Assembly: GCA_964470695.1 (NCBI GenBank)
Contig: CAYYDR010000002.1
Span: forward strand, 72,401-136,400
Direction of reading: 5' to 3'
Source: an uncultured Gammaproteobacteria bacterium
GTDB lineage: Bacteria > Patescibacteriota > Patescibacteriia > Patescibacteriales > UBA12465
Length of the DNA: 64,000 nucleotides
Part shown: one piece after another, positions 55,256 through 64,000 of the stretch
How the letters are laid out: every line of letters begins with the position of its first letter
Position numbering within the stretch: the first letter of the stretch is position 1
Made by a program: the position numbers and the translations under genes
Notes under the pieces: generated by a model
Database searches by the model: none
What the model saw: the letters and a program-made list of their open reading frames with translations, nothing else
What the model was told of the DNA's origin: nothing

Positions 55256-56854
55256 ATGAGCGAAACTATTAATTATTTAAAGATTGGCAAAGCCTCTGAT
55301 TTATCAGGCCGGGACTATAAAATTTATCGTCTTTTGGAGATTTTGCCCGGTTTTTTATCTATTGCTACCTTAGTAGTCTTAACCGCCCTGTCCTATTTAA
55401 AGCCGGTCTGGGTGGCTTATTTTATTATTGCCTTTGATGTTTATTGGCTTCTGCTTGTTATCTACATGGCGATATTTTTAATTACTTCTTATCGCCAATT
55501 GCAAATTGGGCTCAAGACTGATTGGCGGGCGGCCTGTGAAAGGTTAAAGGTAGGTGATTTTAGTAAAGAAAAAGTTGCCGCTGATTCCCTAGCTAAGAGG
55601 GGTATTACTTGGGATAGTTTGTGGCAATTAATAATATTACCGAACGTAAATGAGGATTTAAGTATTATCAGGACCGCTTTAGCCTCCCTGCTGGATGACG
55701 GTTTTCCCGCTGACAGAATGATTATTGCTTTAGCGATGGAAGAAAGGGCAGGCCAGGAGGCTAGAGACAGGGCAGAAATTATGCGTCAGGAGTTTGCTTC
55801 TAAGTTCGGCCGGTTTATTATTACTTATCATCCCGACGGAATAGGGGGCGAGCTAAAAGGCAAGGGCGCTAATCAGGCTTGGTCGGCTAAAGTAGTACAA
55901 GAAAAGATTATTGATCAAGAAAAATTAGACCATGATTTAATTTTAATTAGCGTTTTTGATATTGATACGATTGTTCGGCCGGGTTATTTTTTTGCTTTAA
56001 CTTATAAATTTTTGACGGTTAGCGATCCATATCATACTAGTTTCCAGCCTGTGCCGGTTTATCATAATAATATTTGGAGCGCGCCTTTCTTCTCGCGCGT
56101 GGCAGCCTCATCTAATACCTTTTGGCAGATGATCATGCAAATTAGGCAGGAGAGCCTAGTCACCTATTCTTCACATTCCATGACTTGGCGGGCTTTAGTA
56201 GAAATTGGTTTTTGGTCAACTAAGAATGTTTCTGAGGACTCGCGTATTTTTTGGCACTGTCTGATGTATTACAACGGTCATTACCGAGTGGAGCCGATTC
56301 ATTATGAAGTATCAATGGACGCGACTCATGATGAAAGCTATCTGAAAACCGCTCGCAGCTTATATAAGCAGCAGCGTCGCTGGGCCTGGGGCGGGGAAAA
56401 TATTCCTTATTTATTATTTAATACCGGCAAGCGCTGGAAGAATAAAGATTTAGACAAAGGCAGAATCATTGGACATATTCTTATCCAAATTTATGGTTTT
56501 CACGCTTGGGCTACTAACGCGCTTATAATTGCGGTAATTGGCTGGCTGCCTATGCTTCTGGGAGGAGATAGGTTTAACTCCACGGTCTTATCCGGCAACT
56601 TGCCAGCTGTTACGCAGAATTTAATGAGCGTTGCCATGGTTGGTTTAGTTTTATCCGCTGTTATTTCCGCCCTGCTACTACCAAAAAAGCCGGCCAAATA
56701 TGGGGCCGGCAAGAGAGTACTTATGACTTTAGAGTGGGTTGCTGTTCCGATAACAATAATTATTTTTGGCGCCGTGCCCTGTTTAGAGGCCCAGCTCAGG
56801 CTCATGACCGGGAGATATATGGGATTTTGGTTAACTCCGAAATCACGATCTTAA
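55256..56854 (+). CDS. membrane-embedded family 2 glycosyltransferase (processive type)
   Basis: Flanking TM helices, a FDIDT (DxD) motif, and QQRRWAWG (QxxRW). Confidence 0.75.
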   Translation: MSETINYLKIGKASDLSGRDYKIYRLLEILPGFLSIATLVVLTALSYLKPVWVAYFIIAFDVYWLLLVIYMAIFLITSYRQLQIGLKTDWRAACERLKVGDFSKEKVAADSLAKRGITWDSLWQLIILPNVNEDLSIIRTALASLLDDGFPADRMIIALAMEERAGQEARDRAEIMRQEFASKFGRFIITYHPDGIGGELKGKGANQAWSAKVVQEKIIDQEKLDHDLILISVFDIDTIVRPGYFFALTYKFLTVSDPYHTSFQPVPVYHNNIWSAPFFSRVAASSNTFWQMIMQIRQESLVTYSSHSMTWRALVEIGFWSTKNVSEDSRIFWHCLMYYNGHYRVEPIHYEVSMDATHDESYLKTARSLYKQQRRWAWGGENIPYLLFNTGKRWKNKDLDKGRIIGHILIQIYGFHAWATNALIIAVIGWLPMLLGGDRFNSTVLSGNLPAVTQNLMSVAMVGLVLSAVISALLLPKKPAKYGAGKRVLMTLEWVAVPITIIIFGAVPCLEAQLRLMTGRYMGFWLTPKSRS

Positions 56855-58527
56855 GCTCGTTTAATAATCCGAACCGTACCGTGATTGGCCCGCACTTCAA
56901 TCAAGTCGTTATCATGGATGAGTTGAGTGGCTATTTTGGTGCCGATTATGCAAGGTTTATTTAACTCCCGGCTGACAATGGCCGCGTGGCAAGTAATGCC
57001 ACCTTCATTAGTGACAATTCCGGCCGCCTTCTTCATTAATGGTAAGAATTCAGGACGAGTCATGCCGCTGACTAGTATTTCTCCTTCCGTAAATTTTTTA
57101 AAATCATCTTCACCTAAAATAATTTTTGCCCGACCCCTGACATAACCCTGGGAAGCGACCTGACCGTAGATTATATCGGTCTGGTTTTTTTTATGGCTTA
57201 ATTTTTGCTCCCATTCATTGCGCAGAGATTGCGCTTGCGCGCCAATAAATATTTTGTAGCCATCTGGGCGCACGGCCGCGATTATTCCTTCTTCGCGTCG
57301 TTCAGCTAGCTGGTTAAGTCCAATGGAGCCGGCTAGTACCGCCGCTATTTCTTCGGTATTGAGATATTTTAGATATTTTTTGGCGATTCCGGTTCTGGTC
57401 TCTAAAGCGCTAAGAACATGATCAGCTAAAACAAAGTACATTAGGTTCATCATTTTGCGATATTCTCTCATGTAAGTTAATTTTTGAAAGAAGAATAGCG
57501 GGTTGGCTGTCCAATGATATTTTTTTAGGATTTTAGTAATCGCTTTTTCTTGATCAGCCCCGTAATTCTCCAGATGATGGTATTCTTGCCGAAAAGATTG
57601 GCTGGCGGGGCGGTAAGACATTATTTCCGCGATAACTTCATCCCGAGTTAGGGGATTATATCGGGCATAGTTGGATTTGTAGTAAGAAAATTTTTTAATA
57701 TGTTCCGTTACTAGAGGACTGCTTTGCAATGCGGCTTTAATCTGACGTTTAGTCTGGTGTTGCAAATTATTGGCGATTTTCATGAGATCTAATTTTTTCT
57801 CATTATTAAAAGTTAATTCTGTCGGGGTAATGAGAGTATAAATTTCTTCAGTGCTTAATTTATAGCGGTCGGATATTTTTTTTATTTCTAGTTGATCAAA
57901 GCCGGCGTCAAAAGCATCAATAGAAACGCTAAAGGACCAATCAGAGAAATGGGCATCGGAAATTTCTTGGGCCAAATTTTTAAGAGCCTGGTTATTTAAA
58001 GCGGTAATTTGTTCGGCCGTCGTGGTTTGGAAGAGATTAATTATTTTCAGGGAAGCCGCTAAATAAGATTGGTAGAGGGCCTGGATTTTTTCGGGCCGCT
58101 TGTAATCACGGTAAATTTCTTCGGCGAGCGTAAACAGCTGATCTTTATAAAAATAGGCCCAGAAATAATCTTTCTGGAAGTAGAAGTCAATTAGCTGGTA
58201 GCTATTTTTAAAATATTGGGAGTTAAAGCTATTGCAGGATAGGATGCCGGGCCACATAAAATAAAGAGTTCCTTCTCCTTCCTGGCGGTAGACCTCGCCG
58301 CCACCAGTTGGTTTGTTTTTAGATTGGTCCGGGACGAACTCCAGGATATCTTCTATTTTCCAGCCGTAGGTAGCACAGAGCTTATTAAGGGTAGGGAATT
58401 TCAAACCAGCAATTTGTCCCTTAGTTAAAGACATTATGGTGTTGCGGTTTATCTTAGTTTCTCTAGCAATCTCGGCCGCGTTTTTTTCTAATTTAGCTAT
58501 TAAAGCGGCAATTTTTATTTTTATCAT
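56851..58527 (-). CDS. fusion protein: N-terminal XRE-type HTH, unknown central region, and C-terminal PEP-utilising-enzyme mobile (swivel phosphohistidine) domain
   Basis: The N-terminus IARETKINRNTIMSLTKGQIAGLKFPTLNKLCATYGWKIEDILEF is HTH-like. The C-terminus GIVTNEGGITCHAAIVSRELNKPCIIG matches the GGxTxHAAIVxRE motif. Confidence 0.75.
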   Translation of the reverse strand: MIKIKIAALIAKLEKNAAEIARETKINRNTIMSLTKGQIAGLKFPTLNKLCATYGWKIEDILEFVPDQSKNKPTGGGEVYRQEGEGTLYFMWPGILSCNSFNSQYFKNSYQLIDFYFQKDYFWAYFYKDQLFTLAEEIYRDYKRPEKIQALYQSYLAASLKIINLFQTTTAEQITALNNQALKNLAQEISDAHFSDWSFSVSIDAFDAGFDQLEIKKISDRYKLSTEEIYTLITPTELTFNNEKKLDLMKIANNLQHQTKRQIKAALQSSPLVTEHIKKFSYYKSNYARYNPLTRDEVIAEIMSYRPASQSFRQEYHHLENYGADQEKAITKILKKYHWTANPLFFFQKLTYMREYRKMMNLMYFVLADHVLSALETRTGIAKKYLKYLNTEEIAAVLAGSIGLNQLAERREEGIIAAVRPDGYKIFIGAQAQSLRNEWEQKLSHKKNQTDIIYGQVASQGYVRGRAKIILGEDDFKKFTEGEILVSGMTRPEFLPLMKKAAGIVTNEGGITCHAAIVSRELNKPCIIGTKIATQLIHDNDLIEVRANHGTVRIIKRA

Positions 58528-62702: not shown

Positions 62703-62773
62703 TGCGGGATCGTCTAATGGTAGGACAGCGGCCTTTGAAGCCGTTTATCTTGGTTCGAATCCAAGTCCCGCAG
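62703..62773 (+). tRNA. tRNA-Gln (anticodon TTG)
   Basis: 71-nt cloverleaf: acceptor TGCGGGA/TCCCGCA (U1-A72), D arm GTCT/GGAC, anticodon loop CTTTGAA, and T arm CTTGG-TTCGAAT-CCAAG. Confidence 0.9.
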
Positions 62774-62776
62774 CTA
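62758..62776 (+). repeat. 19-nt direct repeat, copy 1 (3' end of tRNA-Gln)
   Basis: AATCCAAGTCCCGCAGCTA is identical to 62965-62983. Confidence 0.9.
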
Positions 62777-62780
62777 AAAT

Positions 62781-62815
62781 AAAACACCCCAACAAAGTTG
62801 GGGTGTTTTATTTTC
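62781..62815 (+). terminator. rho-independent terminator after tRNA-Gln
   Basis: AAAACACCCCA (62781-91) pairs with TGGGGTGTTTT (62799-809), followed by ATTTT. Confidence 0.7.
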
Positions 62816-62820
62816 ATCTT

Positions 62821-62964
62821 AGGCCTGGATTCGAACAGGGTTGAAGCGAACTAGCCAGCGGTCAGCAGGCCGCTGGCGCAGTGAGCGATCGCTAAGTGTC
62901 CGGGGGACACTTAGCGCAACCCGCGACAACGAAGGAGCGAGTGACGACGAGCGACTGAGGCGGA
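62821..62964. other. GC-rich (about 63%) strongly hairpinned segment of unknown nature between the two tRNA-Gln 3'-end copies
   Basis: Hairpins GCCAGCGG/CCGCTGGC (62854-62877) and CGCTAAGTGTCC/GGACACTTAGCG (62890-62916, 12 bp). There is a T-arm-like CCTGGATTCGAACAGG at 62824-62839. No credible ORF. Confidence 0.4.
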
Positions 62965-62983
62965 AATCCAAGTCCCGCAGCTA
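62965..62983 (+). repeat. 19-nt direct repeat, copy 2
   Basis: AATCCAAGTCCCGCAGCTA. It lacks the 5' half of the T stem, so it is not a functional tRNA. Confidence 0.9.
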
Positions 62984-63014
62984 GTTTTATAAAATCGCCG
63001 TTTAGGCGGTTTTT

Positions 63015-63023
63015 TGTTATAAT
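63015..63023 (+). promoter_or_regulatory. extended -10 element TGTTATAAT
   Basis: TGnTATAAT at 63015-63023, 29 nt before ATG 63052. Confidence 0.35.
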
Positions 63024-63051
63024 TATTATATTGAAATAGTTGGTTAAATTA

Positions 63052-63627
63052 ATGTCTGACCTAAAAACAATTATTGGAGCCATAGCCGTAATTCTGACAT
63101 TTGTCGGTTACGTGCCCTACTTTAGGGATATTCTGAAAAATAAGACTAAGCCTCATGCTTTTTCTTGGTTTATTTGGGGCGTCATCGCCGCCATTATTTA
63201 TGCTTTGCAAGTAAGCGCCGGCGCGGGGCCTGGCTCTTGGGTTACCTTAGGCTTAGTCGTTATAACTTTTTCCATATTCTTTTTAAGTTTAAAGTCAGGA
63301 GTAAATTATATTAAAAGAGTAGATATAATTACTCTAGTATTAGCTTTAAGTACCCTGCCAATATGGTTGATTGTAAAACAGCCGCTTATTTCGGTAATTA
63401 TTCTGTCGGCCATAGATATATTAGGATTTATACCGACTGTCAGAAAATCTTGGCAAAATCCATATTCTGAAACATTATCTTTTTACGTAATTACTACCTT
63501 GCGACATGCCTTGAGCCTTTTCGCTATATCGGAATATAATTTAATTACCTCCTTGTTTCCAGCTACCTGGGTTATAATGAACGCCTTATTTTCTTTTATG
63601 CTTATGATAAGGCGTGGAAAGCATTAA
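63052..63627 (+). CDS. polytopic membrane protein of unknown family (paralog of 17278-17874)
   Basis: GYVPYFRDILKNKTKPHAFSW and overall colinearity with the 17278 ORF. ATG 63052 is preferred over the track's TTG 63040. Confidence 0.6.
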   Translation: MSDLKTIIGAIAVILTFVGYVPYFRDILKNKTKPHAFSWFIWGVIAAIIYALQVSAGAGPGSWVTLGLVVITFSIFFLSLKSGVNYIKRVDIITLVLALSTLPIWLIVKQPLISVIILSAIDILGFIPTVRKSWQNPYSETLSFYVITTLRHALSLFAISEYNLITSLFPATWVIMNALFSFMLMIRRGKH

Positions 63628-63637
63628 AATAGCGAGT

Positions 63638-64000
63638 ATGAAACCATATCGGTTTAGTCCAATAGAAAATAAAGCCCAATTATTAGAAGTTATAAAATAT
63701 ACGCATCTAAAATGTTTTGAGTTGTGTAAAAAAGTTTATGGCAAGTATCTTCCTGTCGCTGGTAATATAGGAATATTTTGCCATTATGATGATGAATATA
63801 ATTTTCTTACAAAATTACGAAAAGAACTTACCGAAGAATCAGGCAGTTGGAATAATAAATATTACCGTCTTTATGAGCCTTTGGTAGTTTCTAGATTGGG
63901 AGATATTCCTGGCGCCGTTTATGCCTATCTTTACATTAGAAGACCGGATCAACATAAAGAAGTAGGTGATATTGACTTTGTTTTAGATGAAAAAGAATAT
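63638..64000 (+). CDS. hypothetical protein, 5' part only (runs off the right edge)
   Basis: ATG 63638 opens a frame of 121 codons to the window end (MKPYRFSPIENKAQLLEVIKYTHLKCFELCKK...). No motif recognised. Confidence 0.45.
   Translation, partial: MKPYRFSPIENKAQLLEVIKYTHLKCFELCKKVYGKYLPVAGNIGIFCHYDDEYNFLTKLRKELTEESGSWNNKYYRLYEPLVVSRLGDIPGAVYAYLYIRRPDQHKEVGDIDFVLDEKEY

Follow-up and report, generated by a model that had tools for sequence, protein, structure and literature searches.

Transfer RNA (tRNA) genes are classic integration sites, and cis-mobilizable elements (CIMEs) are non-autonomous, att-bounded elements that are moved by the integrase of a related integrative element. A further precedent is provided by the tycheposons of Prochlorococcus, kilobase-long islands that accrete at tRNA anchors and involve tyrosine recombinases (bioRxiv 10.1101/2020.12.28.424599). 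Here we describe a 207-bp insert behind the tRNA-Gln gene in a 64,000-nucleotide stretch (hereafter the window) of contig CAYYDR010000002.1, from an uncultured bacterium assigned to the Patescibacteriota, together with the family of elements to which it belongs. We consider it rather probable that this insert is a miniature, non-autonomous integrative cassette at the tRNA-Gln 3′ end that carries a new structured module, likely an RNA. We found no published description of its core in the literature, where tycheposons are the nearest concept.

Comparison with these systems reveals both likenesses and differences. As in CIMEs, direct repeats of the target 3′ end bound a short insert without recombination genes, and tandem accretion occurs at one site; however, no cognate autonomous element or integrase was found for the family, the window unit measures only ~207 bp, the fold is conserved and covarying, and the same core occurs at several tRNA types. 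As in tycheposons, variable material lies by specific tRNAs in a streamlined host genome and its modules are split by partial tRNA copies, whereas the modules here are single small genes or a structured unit free of open reading frames (ORFs), are not linked to a recombinase, and are split by partial tRNA copies with characteristic non-tRNA left halves. Integrons share with this system the one-gene cassettes that end in a short recombination-site-like sequence behind one fixed anchor, the occurrence of ORF-less cassettes, and elements that are conserved in structure and variable in sequence. They differ in that no intI lies by the anchor, which here is a tRNA gene flanked by housekeeping genes (ftsX or glmS), in that the cassette ends are short, degenerate, non-palindromic tRNA 3′ ends and not attC hairpins, and in that the cassettes appear to carry their own terminator/promoter module. 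Because an integrase, and intI together with attC, were looked for and not found, we do not file the element as a CIME, a tycheposon or an integron; it is a tRNA-end integrative element with a previously uncatalogued structured element.

The insert at tRNA-Gln and its empty counterparts

The window encodes an intact tRNA-Gln(UUG) on the + strand (62703-62773/4; identified by ARAGORN, and scoring 65.8 bits with the Rfam tRNA model). Its CCA end is not encoded, and its part from the T-loop to the 3′ end forms the first copy of a repeat. Exactly two copies of the 19-mer AATCCAAGTCCCGCAGCTA are present in the 64 kb, both on the + strand, at 62758-62776 (attL-like copy 1) and at 62965-62983 (attR-like copy 2); a third match was absent from the window at up to three mismatches, and none appeared in 100 dinucleotide shuffles. 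Copy 1 contains the T-loop from A58 onward, the 3′ strands of the T-stem and of the acceptor stem, the discriminator and CTA. The original prediction, which was made from the letters of the window, had described this duplication of a tRNA 3′ end together with a terminator, a GC-rich stretch and two hairpins between the copies and a further terminator-like hairpin beyond them, and each of these features was recovered. Positions 62821-62964 are 63.2% G+C as compared to 40.8% for the whole window, an inverted-repeat scan located the 8-bp hairpin at 62854-61/62870-77 and the 12-bp hairpin at 62890-901/62905-916, and a terminator scan placed the last hairpin at 62991-63013.

The insert itself (62777-62983) consists of a terminator, a short spacer, the GC-rich core and the second repeat. 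The terminator is a bidirectional hairpin (62776-62814, both strands) formed by a perfect 18-bp inverted repeat with A/T tracts, and would be the present terminator of the tRNA-Gln transcript. A purine-rich spacer follows (62815-62821, +), as delimited in a position profile of 90 family members, and leads to the structured core of ~145 nt and 63% G+C (62822-62971, +), which was defined by covariance model R1, by covariation and by the minimum-free-energy fold. Beyond copy 2 lies a resident terminator/promoter module (62985-63030, +), recognized in the terminator scan and in the empty-site relatives L022 and L003; besides the last hairpin it includes an extended -10-like TGTTATAAT that can be read at 63015-63023.

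Close relatives proved informative on the origin of this arrangement. The independent assembly L002 (ENA ERZ27284374) is 99.3% identical overall to the window and has an identical core in the same arrangement, so neither the arrangement nor the second copy is an assembly artefact. In L022 the tRNA-Gln is 100% identical to that of the window, yet the site is empty: directly behind the tRNA stands TTTATAAAATCGCC...GGCGATTTTTGCTATAAT, corresponding to the module after copy 2 in the window, and L003 is similar. Because L022 has an empty site next to an identical tRNA-Gln, the window appears to bear a discrete 207-bp insert and not the scar of a deleted island. The hairpin at 62776-62814 is absent at the empty sites of both L022 and L003, and this first terminator is evidently insert-borne rather than resident. 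Between the window and L002:1212-1250, strains that are 99% identical, its stem carries a compensatory C>T / G>A exchange; since this exchange keeps the stem, the insert-borne hairpin is probably under selection. Downstream, L002 remains ~99% identical until ~63030 and is then wholly different (L002:1430-1566 versus window 63031-64000), while L022 is without the first downstream ORF of the window, its next ORF being a homologue of the second one. The region after the tRNA therefore varies between close relatives.

The structured core and its family

The flanking gene order is conserved in an unbiased set of 80 loci from metagenome-assembled genomes (MAGs) of Falkowbacteria-like Patescibacteria, which we fetched via FtsX. 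A BLAST search of these loci for further copies of the core, as the original prediction had advised, returned homologues of ~74% identity just after tRNA-Gln in several species, and a degenerate two-gap pattern returned 97 stretches in metagenome contigs of the Joint Genome Institute (JGI). Covariance model R1, built from 94 distinct copies, had a single match in the window (62822-62978, +, 122.9 bits, E = 2e-32), 15 matches in 11 of the 80 FtsX loci, all on the + strand right after tRNA-Gln, and 123 matches across all fetched loci. The hosts of these >120 homologues are Falkowbacteria-like MAGs and metagenomes, and we conclude from sequence comparison that a family of ~145-nt elements is likely to be widespread in Falkowbacteria-like Patescibacteria.

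The unit is ~207-220 bp long with a constant architecture across >100 copies, and the tRNAs that host it are Gln(UUG), Gln(CUG), Ser(GCU), Ser(UGA), Ser(GGA), Val(UAC) and Lys(CUU). In fact, a single 809-kb genome has copies at three different tRNAs (L112, L143, L149). Hairpins equivalent to the window terminator precede every family member, and in copies with a tRNA immediately upstream the distance from that tRNA to the start of the core is 45-61 nt, with both on one strand. The last bases of the core are GGCGGAAA, directly before TCC, where a copy of a tRNA 3′ end begins, usually that of the adjacent tRNA, and a terminator hairpin stands within a few bases after every such copy.

These regularities bear on the proposal, put forward in the original prediction, that a large genomic island or prophage had integrated at tRNA-Gln and been almost entirely deleted. 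The direct repeats of the tRNA 3′ end that flank the segment would fit such a scar. However, a random deletion remnant is not expected here, because the same unit, with its length, architecture and fold, recurs in >100 contigs behind several tRNA types; in addition, selection has kept the structure, the core matched neither phage records nor any of 2.9 million viral contigs in three scans, and L022 and L003 show an empty site. The scar is hardly credible on this evidence and is effectively refuted. An origin as a phage attP site was rejected as well, given the absence of any phage-record or viral-contig match. The prediction had offered a second option, in which the tRNA end is used by a miniature element or a small structured RNA, and it is this option that the empty sites and the covarying fold bear out. 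The element does not belong to a known RNA family in Rfam 15, where only noise was obtained over the core (E ≤ 10 in the window, E ≤ 1 in 14 other loci).

The fold comprises five helices and two three-way junctions on the + strand, and the minimum-free-energy fold of the window reproduces the consensus. In the closing helix P0 (62825-31/62965-71) NNGGAUU pairs with AAUCCNN. J0/1 (CGAACAG) then leads to P1 (62838-43/62917-22), whose stem sequence differs among copies (GGUUG/CAACC, GGUCAG/CUGACC, GGAUUG/CAAUCC, AACUUG/CAAGUU and GGACAG/CUGUCC), and J1/2 (AAGCGAG) to P2 (62850-62882, hairpin 62854-63/62868-77), which often has tandem G.A internal loops and is capped by GGAA or AGCA loops. After J2/3 (GAGCG) comes P3 (62886-62916), a long hairpin with a freely varying stem that in the window has 12 bp (62890-901/62905-916) and the loop GGG. 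J1/4 (GCGACAACGAAG or GGACAAGUGAG) precedes the P4 hairpin (62933-62958), in which the window has Watson-Crick pairs alternating with tandem G.A in a zipper, and J4/0 (UGAGGCGGA or GCGAGCGCGAU) returns to P0. The conserved junction sequences of the core are GGATTCGAACAG, AAGCGA, GAGCG, GCGACAACGAAG and CTGAGGCGGAAATCC.

Covariation was counted on a plain MAFFT alignment (A2). Standard pairs filled 87.2% of cells versus 67.8% in shuffles, 32 of 39 pairs changed on both sides versus a mean of 26.6 in shuffles, and the covariation score reached 0.49, as compared to 0.17 in shuffles (none of 500 attained the observed score) and 0.07-0.13 for slid partners. In A5, a model-fitted alignment that leans towards structure, 89.4% of cells were paired and 34 of 38 pairs changed on both sides. 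Because selection keeps its fold, the core appears to act as a single strand. The cores are also mosaic, in that one P3 hairpin or P4 module can occur with differing P1 and P2 (alignments A2 and A5: L088, L134, L030, L015, L090), which suggests frequent recombination among family members.

The closing helix ties the core to the duplicated tRNA end, of which it takes the first four bases of the T-stem strand. The first 7 nt of copy 2 (AATCCAA) form the 3′ strand of P0, and the last 12 nt (acceptor 3′ strand, discriminator, CTA) are an unpaired tail. The two outer pairs of P0, which join the 5′ flank of the core with T-stem bases of the tRNA copy, form in 74% and 85% of copies (matched by 3 and 0 of 2000 shuffles, respectively), and the position beyond them shows no pairing. 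The 5′ side of the core corresponds to the T-stem 5′ strand plus A-UUCGAA and its 3′ side to AAU plus the T-stem 3′ strand, giving a framework NNGG-ATTCGAA ... GAAAT-CCNN whose 'T-loop' holds the two-junction, five-helix domain. In this model, copy 2 is best seen as part of a T-arm-like framework with ~130 nt within its loop, followed by the unpaired acceptor-strand tail. The T-arm-like motif of the original prediction (CCTGGATTCGAACAGG, 62824-62839) does exist, but it is better read as the 5′ half of this framework, pairing with repeat copy 2.

Such a framework resembles known T-arm mimics, namely the corresponding domain of transfer-messenger RNA (tmRNA), viral tRNA-like structures and small RNAs from tRNA trailers: GGAUUCGAA closes onto AAUCC plus T-stem bases, the acceptor 3′ strand follows, and the position in the tRNA 3′ trailer would allow co-transcription and processing. 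It differs in that the core has no acceptor 5′ strand, D arm, anticodon arm or tag reading frame, in that tmRNA and tRNA models match only the true tRNA, and in that the insertion sits inside the 'T-loop'. A tmRNA had been considered for the + strand motif GGAUUCGAACAGGG, which is like the 5′ D-loop region of tmRNA, and was rejected: ARAGORN found no tmRNA in the window, Rfam gave no tmRNA match, the acceptor 5′ strand is missing, and copy-length differences that are not multiples of three leave no conserved tag frame. Coding ORFs over the core (47-50 aa) were discounted on the same differences in length and because the stems covary. Similarly, a minus-strand pseudo-tRNA or primer-binding site starting from CCTGTTCGAATCCAGG would need an 8-nt loop on a strand that folds worse in 95 of 97 copies, and a hammerhead-like CUGAGG...GAAA has no space for helix II, nor did any Rfam ribozyme match.

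Related but distinct elements were encountered at the same sites. A second, 'mini' family of ~55 nt has the same ends, GGATTCGAAG ... GGGGTAAA followed by TCC and the tRNA 3′ end, with one hairpin (GCCCC-GGAGCGnAGCGTA-GGGGT), and lies behind tRNA-Gln or tRNA-Val, sometimes with a full-size core after it (L037:7100-7170; L092, oriented 250-345; L178:3268-3375; L065:7125-7170). In Magasanikbacteria, L080:7285-7340 and L082:7230-7290 share TTGGTGAAAGTGRCCCGACTCTATCCGAAAAC right after the tRNA-Gln 3′ end, and L082 has a further, different element that is initiated by GGGATTCGAAC and whose tRNA-end copy starts with CCCTG, not AATCC.

Cassette arrays, exchange and probable mobility

Where no tRNA adjoins the core, a cargo gene comes first, then a degenerate tRNA-end site, then a terminator, and the core follows. 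In these degenerate sites the T-loop has 4-5 nt inserted, for example GTTCCAACTATA/TCCC...GAGC and CGTTCCAACATCG/TCCCACCCTCTCCGC. The arrangement is particularly illustrated by L170, where a single core unit stands behind a tRNA-Ser(UGA) that adjoins glmS, and at least five cassettes of one or two genes come after it, all of them closed by a degenerate tRNA-end site. A terminator stands after four of the five sites, mostly together with a TTGTTATAAT- or TATAAT-type promoter-like element, and the resulting cassette-start module is of the same kind as that at 62985-63030 of the window. Cargo genes encode radical SAM enzymes, methyltransferases and NUDIX, HD, Fic and Bro-N proteins. Arrays also occur at tRNAs without a core (L048, L054, L074), and no integrase was present next to array anchors. 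Integron-like arrays behind tRNAs were noted at L170:8187-11700 and also in L088, L024, L074, L048, L085 and L147; their site consensus is ACCGTTCCAACATCG/TCCCACCCTCTCCGC for Ser and AAGTTCCAACTATA/TCCC..GAGC for Gln, usually with a terminator/promoter-like module after it. A motif TTATTATTAGCCAC lies ~10 nt before the degenerate site in L083, L094, L096, L114, L136 and L157. In the metagenome loci L135 and L147, ORFs with a phosphoenolpyruvate (PEP)-utilizer mobile domain are the last gene before such a site; in the window, the upstream region encodes a protein with a helix-turn-helix domain and a PEP-utilizing-enzyme mobile domain (56851-58527, -).

Several observations speak of exchange between sites. 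Tandem units exist in L015, L032 and L163, L015 having two tandem units, a cargo ORF and then a third unit; these are compatible with an excised circular form, without proving it. In L029, L094, L099, L151 and L155 inner copies bear the T-stem variant of another tRNA-Gln lineage while the tRNA retains its own, and several Ser cases are like them; this places any crossover within the acceptor-strand part, shows a foreign origin and conflicts with a simple target-site duplication. According to our preferred reading of the insert as a miniature integrative cassette, the 19-mers would be the att-type repeats that result when recombination takes place in the 3′ strand of the tRNA, and the insert would supply its own terminator for the tRNA plus a ~145-nt structured module that folds on the tRNA strand. 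Since no integrase, transposase or reverse transcriptase was found, this recombination step is one that we wholly infer, and since no recombinase is linked to the unit, mobilization would occur in trans.

A number of points weigh against this reading. The unit itself, with its 207 bp, is too short to encode an integrase. The 30 candidate ORFs of the window (the downstream ORF and 29 with a length of ≥250 aa) include 20 that were run against Pfam, and these 20 revealed no integrase, transposase or reverse transcriptase; likewise, no recurrent recombinase was found by Pfam among the top families listed for 148 flanking ORF clusters. A linked recombinase was thus rejected within that scope, which applies below wherever window ORFs and flank families are mentioned, and no autonomous element sharing the att site was found in viral contigs, phage records or fetched flanks. 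The view of the original prediction that the duplicated tRNA 3′ end is an integration footprint is compatible with the data in respect of the repeats and lacks its integrase. L022 could lack the unit because slippage between the 19-bp repeats removed it, and not because the lineage of the window gained it, and a double-stranded circle of ~207 bp would be awkwardly small. Moreover, cores that are 97.7% identical lie behind tRNA-Ser in L088 and behind tRNA-Gln in L134, with an identity that begins exactly at GGATTCGAAC and ends at GGAAATCC between unrelated flanks; this is not explained by simple att x att integration and requires gene conversion, insertion of the core into a T-arm framework already in place, or another mode of movement. 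Finally, among 90 family members no promoter hexamers are conserved between terminator and core, where the gap after the T-tract is ~16 nt, so a conserved promoter in this interval was rejected and RNA and folded single-stranded DNA stay as two readings of the core.

These points lend some weight to an alternative in which the unit is a vertically inherited, tRNA-linked non-coding RNA gene. Its framework and tail would then be functional, as a tRNA 3′-half mimic or a processing handle, and its patchy distribution would result from repeated slippage loss between the direct repeats and gene conversion among copies. Indeed, the tRNA copy takes part in the closing helix, with which it covaries, orientation and position (45-61 nt after the tRNA) are constant, no recombinase was found in window ORFs or the flank families listed, and identity blocks limited to the core fit gene conversion. 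We nonetheless regard vertical inheritance as unlikely, given the inner copies with the T-stem variant of a different tRNA-Gln lineage (L029, L094, L151, L155), the tandem arrays with distal units after cargo genes, the occurrence of one core subtype behind tRNA-Ser and tRNA-Gln in different genomes, and the distal tails that decay, or are split by a GC palindrome, next to an intact core. Insertion at a fixed distance, as in CRISPR-associated transposons (CASTs), had been considered for the 45-61 nt spacing and was rejected, as the first terminator is insert-borne and no transposon ends were seen.

The tail raises another possibility, namely that the core is a scaffold and its tRNA-identical 3′ tail a guide for a TnpB/Cas12-like or bridge-RNA-like effector that inserts cassettes at the tRNA. 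As in the right-end RNAs (reRNAs) of TnpB and in Cas12 single guides, a structured scaffold of ~140 nt is followed by ~12-19 nt that match a nearby genomic target, here 12-16 nt identical to the neighboring tRNA gene with a terminator after them. One scaffold occurs with different tRNA tails, cassette arrays exist without a linked integrase, and the context 5′ of the copy is GGCGGAAA versus GGTTCGAA in the tRNA, so that a rule resembling a protospacer-adjacent motif could spare the guide locus. In contrast to those systems, however, no tnpB, cas12 or IscB-type effector ORF overlaps or adjoins any copy (ORF list, Pfam, window ORFs and flank families listed), IS200/IS605 ends are lacking, the target is duplicated, and the tail is weakly conserved in older copies and, without the bases taken up by P0, shorter than usual guides. 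The guide hypothesis is accordingly very doubtful. The acceptor-strand tail is probably a recombination by-product and not a functional guide, because distal tails gain substitutions, a palindrome parts tail from undegraded core at about nine loci, and arrays exist at tRNAs without cores.

This GC-rich palindrome (CTGCCTGCCGGCAGGCAGG and variants) lies between the core end and the acceptor-strand tail, just after AATCC(C), in L116, L118, L145, L106, L084, L150, L156, L177 and L111, and appears to be a small repeat in its own right, targeting this very position. A further sign of mobility and exchange concerns assembly: of ~66 MAG contigs, 17 end no more than 450 nt from the tRNA-Gln T-loop, and for six of these the break lies at most ~8 nt from where the tRNA ends, which points to a systematic assembly breakpoint as expected at a repeated or polymorphic site. 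The Logan contig L001 stops inside the tRNA too (window 62745). As for the neighborhood in the window, the site is flanked by genes for a DPBB/peptidase S11 protein, ftsE and ftsX, with tRNA-Thr and tRNA-Gly upstream, and a membrane-protein ORF without a Pfam match (63052-63627, +) is a variable neighbor outside the element.

The putative core product and its implications

In 95 of the 97 copies the tRNA (+) strand gave the more stable fold, with a mean advantage of 8.4 kcal/mol over the complementary strand (Wilcoxon p = 1.6e-17), G-U pairs exceed A-C pairs by 186:99 (p = 3e-7), and 158 G.A cells were counted. In the modeled fold, GNRA-type loops and purine-rich junctions point to RNA, and the product of the core is most likely an RNA, here a putative transcript. 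If this RNA is made, the simplest route would be read-through from the tRNA promoter, which we assume, and release by processing, which we infer. Our best guess is that the core is cargo or a cis-acting RNA derived from tRNA read-through transcripts, with the T-arm mimic as a handle.

Alternatively, the core might be folded single-stranded DNA, a recombination or replication site recognized by its structure in the manner of attC or IS200/IS605 ends. The strand asymmetry and the retention of structure while stem sequences vary suit this idea, as do the association of the core with cassette arrays, the lack of an evident promoter, and the physical ease with which a 207-nt single-stranded circle would form. 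However, the sites at the ends of gene cassettes in these arrays are short and unstructured, and hence the general recombination site is not the core, and the same tRNA can have arrays without a core (L048, L054, L074). In addition, GNRA-type tetraloops and purine-rich junctions that are conserved, as seen here, are characteristic of RNA, neither an IntI nor an HUH gene was found in the 20 window ORFs or the flank families listed, and no Rfam family, which we take to include an attC model, was matched. A DNA site is, in our judgment, decidedly improbable. We have also entertained the idea that the core is the RNA of an unrecognized tRNA-anchored gene-capture system, serving as scaffold, guide or ribozyme for cassette insertion or maintenance; this is improbable, although if true it would explain integron-like arrays without a linked integrase.

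Bacteria of the candidate phyla radiation (CPR) are ultra-small and not easily cultured, and to our knowledge hardly anything has been learned of their non-coding RNAs. Should the core prove to be an RNA, its family would be a new structured one of considerable size (five helices, two junctions and >120 copies) that is confined to CPR bacteria. The family explains many of the breaks in Patescibacteria MAG contigs right after tRNA genes, and the covariance model can now be used to annotate these tRNA-end sites. Its coupling to tRNA 3′ ends, together with arrays of one-gene cassettes, suggests how streamlined genomes acquire and shuffle accessory genes.

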